Virus record (IMG/VR): IMGVR_UViG_2703718846_000002
Origin: a virus
Lineage: Duplodnaviria; Heunggongvirae; Uroviricota; Caudoviricetes
DNA: 20,895 bases
Direction: 5' to 3' (one strand)
Under the pieces are notes generated by a model. It was not told where the DNA came from. It saw only the letters and a list, made by a program, of their open reading frames with translations, and did no database searches. The position numbers were made by a program, and so were the translations under genes. Positions 1,335 through 13,050 of the stretch are shown in pieces; position 1 is the first letter of the stretch, and each line of letters opens with the position of its first letter.

Positions 1335-1586
1335 TCAAGTAAGATGACGTCTTGGTCTCGCTGATGCCTGGCGCTCAATCCAGCGATCAATTTCTTCCAG
1401 GTTGTAAAAGCATGGACTGTTATCCCATGGCATACCGTCATGAGCGACATGCTTATATTCCCTTCCTTCCATAAACGATTTTTCCCGGGCCTTTTTTAAC
1501 GTACCTTTTTTTATTCCTTTCAGCGCAATTAACTGCTCTTCGGATACCCATTTGCCGGGAGAGACAATCATGATTACTTCGCTCAT
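1335..1586 (-). CDS. Excisionase-like small DNA-binding protein
   Basis: 83-aa ORF immediately upstream of int on the same strand. Contains an EGREYKH segment resembling the lambda Xis DGREYLFH region. Confidence 0.55.
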   Translation of the reverse strand: MSEVIMIVSPGKWVSEEQLIALKGIKKGTLKKAREKSFMEGREYKHVAHDGMPWDNSPCFYNLEEIDRWIERQASARPRRHLT

Positions 1587-8803: not shown

Positions 8804-9103
8804 AAAAATTCCTTAATACTGATAACTTGGCGCACTATACACACGTTCCTGAAGAAAGCTATAGTTTTTTGATGGGGTTGAAGATGGCTGGATGTCTAAA
8901 ATAAACATTGCTTCATATGTTCAACTATGCGTTAATGATTGCGTCGGTTTGAAGAACAGACGATATACGAAGTAGTTTACTAAAGCAGTTCTCATTTCAG
9001 GTGTTATTCACTTATTCCTTCTTTGAGTCTCTCCAATTAAGTACGAAGTCGTTTCTGTTATGCAAACCATTTATGCCGAAAGGCTCAAGTTAAGGAATGT
9101 AGA

Positions 9104-9319
9104 ATGTCAAATAAAATGACTGGTTTAGTAAAATGGTTTAACGCTGATAAAGGTTTCGGCTTTATTTCTCCTGTTGATGGTAGTAAAGATGTGTTTGTGC
9201 ATTTTTCTGCGATTCAGAATGATAATTATCGAACCTTATTTGAAGGTCAAAAGGTTACCTTCTCTATAGAGAGTGGTGCTAAAGGTCCTGCAGCAGCAAA
9301 TGTCATCATTACTGATTAA
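9104..9319 (+). CDS. cspB: Cold-shock protein CspB
   Basis: 71-aa [70 protein letters not shown].... The 5' UTR carries a GCCGAAAGGC hairpin before the SD, as in cspA. Confidence 0.9.
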
Positions 9320-9600
9320 AATTCATCGCTCGTCTGTATACGATAACGAAGAAGGCTGATGCCTGAGTAGAGATACGGACAGAGTAGTGAATATTGGATC
9401 TCTTTAATAAAAAGTAAGGAGGTCCAATACATGAAACAATGGCTAGCATATTTGGCAAAATCTTAATCAGGAAAAGTATGCTAACCATTGTGGTGAAGTG
9501 CAGGTTTGCTGCATGAATAGTTTTACAGCAGAAGCTAACTGCTGGCATGGCAAAACAAAGTGCGTAAGTGGATGACTCCCACAAAAAGCACCACAATCTC

Positions 9601-9682: not shown

Positions 9683-9853
9683 TCAGGCTACAGCTTTAAG
9701 ATTTGTCTGGAATACTTTGTTGCAATGAGGGCAGATCAAAAGGGCACCTTTTTGTACTCTTGAAAAACTGTGTTCTGACTCTTGGGTGCAGTTTGGGCAG
9801 GAACATTTAACGAGATAATTACGGCGTGATTTTGAGTTTTTACGTTCTGACAT
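9683..9853 (-). CDS. Small zinc-ribbon protein, Com-like (CxxC ... SF ... CxxC)
   Basis: 56 codons from an internal Met with an AGGAAA SD: MSERKNSKSRRNYLVKCSCPNCTQESEHSFSRVQKGALLICPHCNKVFQTNLKAVA. The ORF track extends it to 9904. Confidence 0.45.
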   Translation of the reverse strand: MSERKNSKSRRNYLVKCSCPNCTQESEHSFSRVQKGALLICPHCNKVFQTNLKAVA

Positions 9854-11628: not shown

Positions 11629-11990
11629 GGTAATATTAAATCGGAACATTTACATCGCGGAATGTAAAATTTAAATAAAAAGGACTCTTCCATGAGCCAA
11701 AATTCCTGAAATCTTAAGGGTAAGATAAAAGGTCTTAATCAGAATGACACGTTTTATTAATAAATAAAGCTATTCTTTCATTGCTGTGTTTTTCTTTACA
11801 AAAGTAATCCTTGCTATGGGTGGTTAATCATGCGTTAATGGTGTTCTGGTTTGTTACAAATTTATCTGAAGCAGTCATTGTTATAATTTTATTATTTGTA
11901 CCTCTTGAGATTTCCTTGTTGGTTTTTCTCTCTGATATTTTTTTTCGGACCATTCTGCCCAAGGGCTAATTTCTTCAAAAGGTAATAATT

Positions 11991-12203
11991 ATGTCTAACA
12001 AAATGACTGGTTTAGTGAAATGGTTTAACCCTGAAAAAGGTTTTGGTTTCATCACGCCGAAAGATGGCAGCAAAGATGTGTTTGTCCATTTCTCAGCAAT
12101 TCAGAGCAACGATTTCAAAACATTAACTGAGAATCAGGAAGTTGAATTTGGTATTGAGAACGGACCTAAAGGTCCTGCCGCTGTTCATGTAGTGGCGCTT
12201 TGA
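11991..12203 (+). CDS. cspI: Cold-shock protein CspI
   Basis: 70-aa [73 protein letters not shown]. Confidence 0.9.
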
Positions 12204-12407
12204 GGTAGACAATATTACAAACCATATTCACTTTAGATGCCCGTGTTGTCATGGTTCCCAGTATAGAACATCATCTTTTGATGTTTCTGACATGAATCCT
12301 TTCGGGGCAAAATGTATCTTTTGTAAATCAATGATGATTACATTTGATAATATTTCACAATACTTAAATGCCAGCCGTCTGTCGTTGGATTTAAAAAAGT
12401 GAAAATG

Positions 12408-12430
12408 AAGGCTCCTTCGGGAGCTTTTTT
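12408..12430 (+). terminator. Intrinsic terminator about 200 nt downstream of cspI
   Basis: AAGGCTCC-TTCG-GGAGCTT hairpin followed by TTTTTT. Confidence 0.5.
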
Positions 12431-12474
12431 GCTTGGTGTCTATTCGATGGATACTCACATACTACGGTAACATC

Positions 12475-12705
12475 ATGAAAAAAATCATAGTTTTTTTTAA
12501 CTCTGAACCAGCAGTGGTAGTGCCAGCGATGACTGGAGTTAACACCATCATGCGTGAATATCCAAATGGCGAAAAAACACACCTTACTGTAATGGCCGCA
12601 GGGTTTCCATCTCTGACCGGAGATCATAAAGTCATTTATGTAGCCGCGGATCGACATGTTACTTCAGAAGAAATTCTGGAAGCAGCAATAAGGCTCTTGA
12701 GTTGA
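12475..12705 (+). CDS. Hypothetical small protein
   Basis: 76 codons from the internal Met MKKIIVFFNSEPAVVV...; balanced composition but a weak RBS. A competing minus-strand ORF (12391..12657) looks less protein-like. Confidence 0.3.
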   Translation: MKKIIVFFNSEPAVVVPAMTGVNTIMREYPNGEKTHLTVMAAGFPSLTGDHKVIYVAADRHVTSEEILEAAIRLLS

Positions 12706-12876
12706 TTTGATGCTATTGCATTGATAATTCAGGAAAATTCTCTTTGTCTGTTTGTGTAAAATTTAGACTATCGTATGTTGATTATTGCGATGTTTCATCT
12801 TATCTTTTACACGTTTGCACCATATAATCGACTTACTGTGTAACTGGAAAGTCATAACAGACTAAAAGAGGAAATG

Positions 12877-13050
12877 ATGAATATTGAAAACTTAAAAACA
12901 AAAGCAGAAGCAGATATTTCTGAATATATAACAAAAAAAATTATTGAACTTAAGAAAAAGACCGGGAAAGAAGTTACCAGTATTCAGTTTACCGCACGGG
13001 AAAAAATGACGGGTCTTGAAAGCTATGATGTCAAGATTAATTTAATCTGA
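12877..13050 (+). CDS. gnsB: GnsB (suppressor of secG-null cold sensitivity)
   Basis: 57-codon ORF below the ORF-track cutoff, translated by hand: MNIENLKTKAEADISEYITKKIIELKKKTGKEVTSIQFTAREKMTGLESYDVKINLI. Confidence 0.8.
   Translation: MNIENLKTKAEADISEYITKKIIELKKKTGKEVTSIQFTAREKMTGLESYDVKINLI

Follow-up and report, generated by a model that had tools for sequence, protein, structure and literature searches.

A frame without a canonical start codon behind cspI of the Qin prophage is very probably ynfQ, a catalogued YmcF-family zinc-ribbon gene starting at ATT

The window analyzed here, a stretch of 20,895 nucleotides, corresponds to the late region of the E. coli Qin prophage, in which the genes are ordered cspF, cspB, ynfU, essD (the S-type lysis gene of Qin), ydfR, rrrQ, rzpQ, cspI, ynfQ, ynfR, ynfN, gnsB, ydfO, and ynfO. 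An earlier note on this DNA had drawn attention to a zinc-ribbon frame without a start codon between cspI and its terminator. As described there, a frame +1 is open from 12193 to a TGA codon at 12400-12402 (69 amino acids), with an in-frame TAG codon directly before it at 12190-12192. The ORF list contained no ATG, GTG, or TTG ahead of the first cysteine pair, where the sole AT-type codons are the ATTs at 12214 and 12226, and the first ATG of this frame in the six-frame ORF list is internal, at 12292. The frame lies at +1 relative to cspI, whose end reads GCG CTT TGA GG. A hairpin followed by a T-run begins 6-8 nt past the TGA codon, in agreement with the terminator noted near the end of the frame. 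Two CxxC pairs, CPCC and CIFC, were present as reported, with 21 residues between them. The features of the locus are as follows.

11845..12230, plus strand: cspA-type thermoregulator (cold-shock 5' UTR and CDS) over cspI; Rfam RF01766, 112.8 bits against a gathering threshold of 78, E=3.5e-29.
11991..12203, plus strand: cspI CDS, 70 amino acids, ending in CTT TGA; ORF list and RefSeq annotation of identical DNA.
12201..12205, plus strand: cspI stop codon TGA overlapping the Shine-Dalgarno (SD) core of ynfQ (TGAGG); from the sequence, 8 nt 5' of the ATT.
12214..12402, plus strand: ynfQ CDS, 62 amino acids, a YmcF-family C4 zinc ribbon; RefSeq, Swiss-Prot, Pfam, and comparison.
12238..12249, plus strand: first zinc knuckle CPCC (Cys9, Cys12); C9, P10, C11, and C12 invariant in the family alignment.
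12313..12324, plus strand: second zinc knuckle CIFC (Cys34, Cys37); I35, F36, and C37 invariant, C34 nearly so.
12405..12470, plus strand: ynfR, a small protein of 21 amino acids whose ORF spans the hairpin; RefSeq.
12408..12430, plus strand: intrinsic-terminator-like hairpin and T-run directly after the ynfQ stop; folding energy -15.5 kcal/mol.
12475..12705, plus strand: ynfN, the next gene of the module; RefSeq, with the same gene order in phage Tritos.

The RefSeq CDS WP_071524604.1, annotated as "cold shock small protein YmcF", mapped to 12214..12402 with ATT as its first codon. The 62-aa product, with Met written for ATT, is identical to the Swiss-Prot entry YNFQ_ECOLI and occurs on at least 1,000 contigs. 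The earlier note had allowed that the cysteine spacing might be due to chance; this was contradicted by the match of the 69-aa translation to the Pfam family PF23641 (YmcF-like), which scored 109.4 bits against a cutoff of 27 (E=9.9e-32) and covered profile positions 1-61 of 62. All four cysteines and their flanking residues fit invariant columns of a 21-sequence alignment, the length of about 62 aa is that of the family, and a csp gene lies directly upstream, which is the commonest arrangement among the loci examined, with the same junction found at 47 other loci. DNA of the cspI region (at least 80% of the query 11950-12480 covered) was carried by 2,128 of the 5,426 complete E. coli genomes. 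The annotation there runs cspI, then ynfQ or ymcF (product "cold shock small protein YmcF"), ynfR, and ynfN. Taken together, these data indicate that the seemingly start-codon-less frame is very probably the known Qin prophage gene ynfQ, the prophage counterpart of ymcF, the gene located behind cspG on the chromosome. The first alternative of the earlier note, a non-canonically initiated small protein co-transcribed with cspI, was thus right, and the database annotation places the CDS at ATT 12214. Because RefSeq, Swiss-Prot, and Pfam already hold this gene, including its non-canonical start, nothing is novel as to the gene, the ATT start, or the family. The gene serves instead as a clean positive control, showing that a gene with a non-canonical start can be recovered by reading raw sequence with care.

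Some care is needed with the name. RefSeq calls the same CDS ynfQ or ymcF, depending on the genome. Further, the "ynfQ" of VanOrsdel 2018 (PMC6001520) is another gene, which lies between ydfJ and ydfK (K-12 coordinate 1632890) and whose 37-aa product is a paralog of YnaM; the name now belongs to the gene that follows cspI. The former appears to be ynfT now, since a 2024 gene list has ynfT at the head of a Qin cluster beginning at 1632890. In the open literature searched, we found neither a functional or discovery paper on ynfQ nor a primary experimental paper on the YnfQ protein or on ribosome occupancy at the ATT, and a 2024 survey counted ynfQ among the uncharacterized Qin genes (PMC11551758). 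YmcF and YnfQ are still listed as uncharacterized, despite their strong conservation and their link to major cold-shock genes.

The start codon of ynfQ is the ATT at 12214-12216, and its stop codon is the TGA at 12400-12402. An SD sequence, GAGG at 12202-12205, is located 8 nt 5' of this ATT and overlaps the cspI stop codon at 12201-12203, leaving a gap of 10 nt between the cspI stop and the ATT. The second ATT, at 12226, lies 20 nt from the SD sequence, and no homolog had an ATG at that position. In the column aligned with 12214, ATT was found at 56, ATC at 4, and ATG at 21 of 81 loci, and an AGG 8-9 nt upstream of the start was invariant in a DNA alignment of ten genera. A near-cognate start at 12214 is therefore indicated by both the interchange with AUG in orthologs and an SD sequence at the proper spacing.

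The protein search identified 132 homologous protein clusters, mostly annotated as Enterobacteriaceae and including one from Dickeya, and the family alignment exhibited a nearly invariant core, IHFRCPCCHGSQYRTSxFDVxxxNPFGAKCIFCKSxM. For the codon comparison, 73 distinct sequences were obtained from 80 genome loci and the window. The mean per-site entropies at codon positions 1, 2, and 3 were 0.36, 0.22, and 1.21, respectively. Pairwise pN values were 0.07-0.12 as compared with pS values of 0.64-0.99, and dN/dS was about 0.05 where dS was computable. As judged from this codon pattern, ynfQ is under strong purifying selection. Two of the sampled loci, almost identical to those of E. coli, are on contigs labelled as a Veillonella parvula MAG (L004) and a Mucilaginibacter MAG (L058), which are most likely mis-binned Enterobacteriaceae.

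These comparisons bear directly on the second alternative of the earlier note, namely that the frame is a recently inactivated paralog, a zinc-ribbon gene that has lost its start and is untranslated. Such a loss would agree with the lack of any ATG, GTG, or TTG from the in-frame TAG at 12190 to the first cysteine pair, but an ATT or ATC start is common to Escherichia, Citrobacter, Salmonella, Kosakonia, Scandinavium, Siccibacter, and others, and the same column holds the ATG of Klebsiella and Enterobacter. In addition, synonymous sites are saturated while dN is only about 0.1, and the frame is intact across thousands of E. coli genomes. The comparative data on the start column, the SD core, and the codon-position variation, that is, the interchange of ATT, ATC, and ATG across genera together with purifying selection, thus refuted the reading as an inactivated paralog, which we consider extremely unlikely.

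It might also be supposed that only the ATG-initiated ORF at 12292..12402, which encodes 36 amino acids with the second cysteine pair alone, is translated, as this is the sole ORF with a canonical start in the ynfQ frame. However, this ATG (Met27) is confined to the K-12-type allele. Other E. coli alleles, among them one of 95% identity that retains the ATT, have Arg instead, and K, S, Q, N, or A occupies the column in other genera. The strongest conservation lies upstream of Met27 (IHFRCPCCHGSQYRTS), and the 36-aa product would be half a zinc ribbon with two ligands missing. Translation of this short ORF alone is therefore very unlikely, and we retain the ATT at 12214 as the start of ynfQ.

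We further considered a prfB-type programmed +1 frameshift, with CUU UGA G at the cspI terminus as the slippery site, by which a CspI-YnfQ fusion would be made with no independent initiation. The slippery CUU UGA is indeed present and the ynfQ frame is at +1, as in prfB, and one genome, Citrobacter sedlakii NBRC 105722, carries csp and ymcF fused in frame (L009, 1258..1690; the start column is ATG, as compared with ATT in other Citrobacter). On the other hand, CTT TGA is not conserved, the cspG-ymcF junction having CTC TAA and other loci GTA TAA, CGC TAA, or CGT TGA, and there is no SD-like stimulator 3 nt 5' of the CTT, where the sequence is GTAGTGGCG, unlike the arrangement in prfB; the SD sequence instead sits downstream. 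Stand-alone homologs have an ATG at the same column, and the csp part of the Citrobacter sedlakii fusion appears degenerate (VKEFN and VFVPSS, as opposed to VKWFN and VFVHFS of csp proteins). Because of this apparently degenerate csp part, the fusion looks like decay, and it could be either real decay or an assembly error. With the site not conserved, the upstream stimulator missing, and stand-alone homologs starting at ATG, the frameshift was rejected as the main route, and we regard it as highly improbable in comparison with independent initiation at the ATT.

The possibility that the region is chiefly a non-coding 3' UTR or a 3'-derived sRNA of the cspI transcript, with the frame being incidental, was likewise weighed. 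Two Citrobacter loci gave sub-threshold matches to the Rfam family STnc220, a Salmonella sRNA (40.5 and 37.3 bits; gathering threshold, 60), whereas no such match was found in the window at E<=0.1. The conservation by codon position is protein-like, and a 3'-derived sRNA would in any case be compatible with coding, so that a purely non-coding role is scarcely credible. The two matches (L008, 1647..1726; L009, 1647..1720) cover the 3' end of ymcF and the terminator and may reflect an sRNA derived from the 3' end in some genera.

The ynfQ gene lies between cspI, which ends 10 nt ahead of it, and the hairpin at 12408-12430, a position suggesting that cspI and ynfQ are carried on one cold-shock transcript. 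RNA-seq induction values of cspI, ynfQ, and ynfN are nearly identical, and ynfQ is labelled "cold shock induced" in a table of RNA-level co-variation (PMC11228462). Together with the database names and the cspA thermoregulator ahead of cspI, this label is indirect evidence that the protein may be cold-shock induced. The cspG and ymcF genes likewise co-vary in RNA-seq tables. A second cspA-type thermoregulator is present at 8943..9335 of the window on the plus strand, over cspB (Rfam, 158.8 bits). Unlike cspI, cspB is not followed by a YmcF-family gene; the nearest gene for a small zinc-binding protein there is ynfU, which is encoded on the other strand and is a member of an unrelated family.

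The hairpin after ynfQ consists of a stem formed by 12408-12415 and 12420-12427 with a UUCG loop, and the T-run extends to 12430. It was also detected on the minus strand in a consensus scan, and a hairpin follows the stop codon in most homologs. The terminator is probably leaky, since ynfR and ynfN lie beyond the hairpin. The ynfR ORF starts 2 nt past the ynfQ stop codon and continues through the hairpin and the T-run; because it crosses the terminator, ynfR can be translated solely from read-through transcripts. SPA-tagged YnfR has been detected and was induced by cold shock (PMC6001520). In the 95%-identical E. coli allele, ynfR is truncated by a TAT-to-TAG change and carries the RefSeq flag "too short", suggesting that the constraint on ynfR is weak. 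The prophage module cspI-ynfQ-(ynfR)-ynfN-gnsB (window 11991..13050) parallels the chromosomal cspG-ymcF-ymcE-gnsA of K-12, and lambdoid phages such as Tritos carry the same module behind their lysis genes. The cspI-ynfQ module looks like a mobile cold-adaptation cassette.

The distribution of start codons correlated with the presence of the upstream csp gene. An intact csp ending in T(A/G)A-GG was located upstream at 48 of the 60 ATT or ATC loci (47 genome loci and the window), and all 48 loci with this junction start with ATT or ATC, the gap being 10 nt in 41, 9 nt in 6, and scored as 29 nt in one. None of the 21 ATG loci has an intact csp at that place. Among them, Klebsiella, Raoultella, and Shimwellia exhibited just a recognizable remnant of the csp 3' end; in Enterobacter, Silvania, and Leclercia, the SD sequence is a free-standing CAGGAG; and Citrobacter sedlakii has the degenerate csp fused in frame. 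In Atlantibacter, ATT-ATG occurs behind a non-csp ORF, whose last residues (ATAL*) resemble the C-terminus of csp products. No cspA thermoregulator was found by Rfam directly upstream at the stand-alone loci scanned. Pseudescherichia is an exception to this pattern, with an ATT and no csp; a nine-codon mini-ORF (MKKGYYYY) overlaps the start and ends 5 nt past the ATT. The csp gene is absent and the ATT kept at eight loci of Pseudescherichia and relatives (L018, L020, L021, L024, L026, L028, L048, and L052, at about 1470..1510), most of which carry the mini-ORF ATG AAA AAA GGA TAC TAT TAT TAC TAA overlapping the ATT, with its stop 5 nt after it. A mini-ORF of this type may be a substitute coupling partner.

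AUU is by itself a poor initiator, and AUU starts are discriminated against by IF3, as in the autoregulation of infC. As AUU is poor alone, initiation on ynfQ would be expected mostly from ribosomes that have just terminated on cspI. A ribosome ending cspI translation at the TGA within the SD sequence would reinitiate at ATT 12214, and such coupling would tie the output of YnfQ to Csp translation at a low, fixed ratio. By analogy with infC, the output is probably also IF3-sensitive. Judged from sequence comparison, the chance that the weak AUU or AUC start persists through coupling of reinitiation to termination on the heavily translated csp stands at about even; we place it no higher because just about 3-4 independent ATT-to-ATG switches contribute and the correlation runs across related genomes. 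The pattern of ATT with csp and ATG without csp nevertheless provides a testable hypothesis, namely that weak starts are held in place by translational coupling. More tentatively, AUU or AUC could be a device for obligate coupling, so that initiation occurs essentially only at csp termination, the YmcF:Csp ratio is low and responsive to IF3 in cold acclimation, loss of csp forces a change to AUG, and the zinc ribbon is a stoichiometry-sensitive partner of the Csp RNA chaperones; we consider this fuller scheme possible, with the balance somewhat against it. A hairpin sequestering the SD sequence and the AUU was predicted in the window (z=-3.4), but it proved to be locus-specific in per-sequence folds of 60+ homologs and was not used as evidence, since it is not conserved in the homologs.

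With regard to the protein itself, an AlphaFold2 model of YnfQ built from the family alignment had a mean pLDDT of 73.5 and displayed short strands at both knuckles and a C-terminal helix at residues 44-58. According to this model, YnfQ is a four-Cys zinc ribbon followed by a C-terminal helix, and it was modelled as a rubredoxin-like metal site in a 2026 review (PMC13348028). A search by sequence for relatives of solved structure gave nothing below E=0.047, and the matches at that level were Rieske-type Cys-motif noise; PHROGs contained no family for YnfQ. A profile search of 1.84 billion representatives yielded just 42 clusters at E<=0.001, and almost all of these are small proteins. No convincing multi-domain relative was found among these 42 clusters, in which two long repetitive proteins weakly matched one stretch of about 20 residues, so that the search offered no lead to function. 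From the generic zinc-ribbon fold, the weak structural matches, and the gene neighbourhood, one might guess that YnfQ assists the cold-shock response as an accessory factor that binds RNA or ribosomes.

Phage Mu Com is the translational activator of mom, and the frame had been called Com-like in the earlier note. Both proteins have about 62 aa, a C4 zinc ribbon, an SFD motif 8 residues after the first CxxC, and a phage or prophage setting; the knuckles are 21 residues apart in YnfQ as compared with 16 in Com. Family membership was unsupported, however, as just a generic C4 zinc-ribbon layout is shared. In Pfam, no match to PF10122 (Zn_ribbon_Com) was listed for the ynfQ frame at E<=10. A Mu Com sequence, which could be used as a stand-in because it matches PF10122 at 2.7e-9, aligned with YnfQ in hhalign at a probability of 57%, with 15 columns matched in a shifted register. 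BLASTP of YnfQ against the same sequence gave 26% identity over 39 residues across both knuckles, with a Cys-driven E=0.009 in a single comparison. Homology with Com thus received no significant support from Pfam, hhalign, or BLASTP. YnfQ does resemble Com as one C4 zinc ribbon resembles another, and homology is not demonstrable.

A kinship with the 56-aa ORF at 9683..9853 on the minus strand, said to have the same layout, was not borne out either. This ORF is YnfU (Pfam PF23499, E=3.5e-31; NCBIfam NF038384), a new small protein from initiation-site ribosome profiling (bioRxiv 10.1101/511675). It has SFS and not SFD, with a spacing of 18 as opposed to 21 residues, and belongs to a different Pfam family; the alignment check gave a probability of 1.6% in hhalign and no BLASTP alignment, so that homology with YnfU was likewise rejected. 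No match of the ynfQ frame to the profiles of the YnfU family (PF23499 and NF038384) was obtained. YnfU and YnfQ are alike in being small C4 zinc-binding proteins of the same prophage, whereas YnfU differs in its CPxC knuckles, its basic N-terminal tail, its ATG start, and its location on the opposite strand, away from a csp stop codon.

In its start, ynfQ resembles the AUU-initiated infC and pcnB of E. coli, which also combine a near-cognate AUU with a proper SD sequence. Unlike in those genes, the AUU of ynfQ lies 10 nt past the stop codon of a highly translated gene, and the AUU of the ynfQ family is replaced by AUG in the ATG loci, which have lost csp. The closest counterpart is YmcF, encoded after cspG in E. 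coli, which is of the same family, is likewise 62 aa long, and has 65% amino acid identity to YnfQ, with the invariant CPCCHGSQYRTS...GAKCIFCK core in common. Both genes are located 10 nt after a cold-shock csp, start with ATT, and have a terminator right past the stop codon. Unlike ymcF, ynfQ is prophage-borne; Qin carries it, as do lambdoid phages including Tritos, 2H10, and mEp460. The csp stop codon ahead of it is TGA and not TAA, and the 21-codon ynfR overlaps its terminator.
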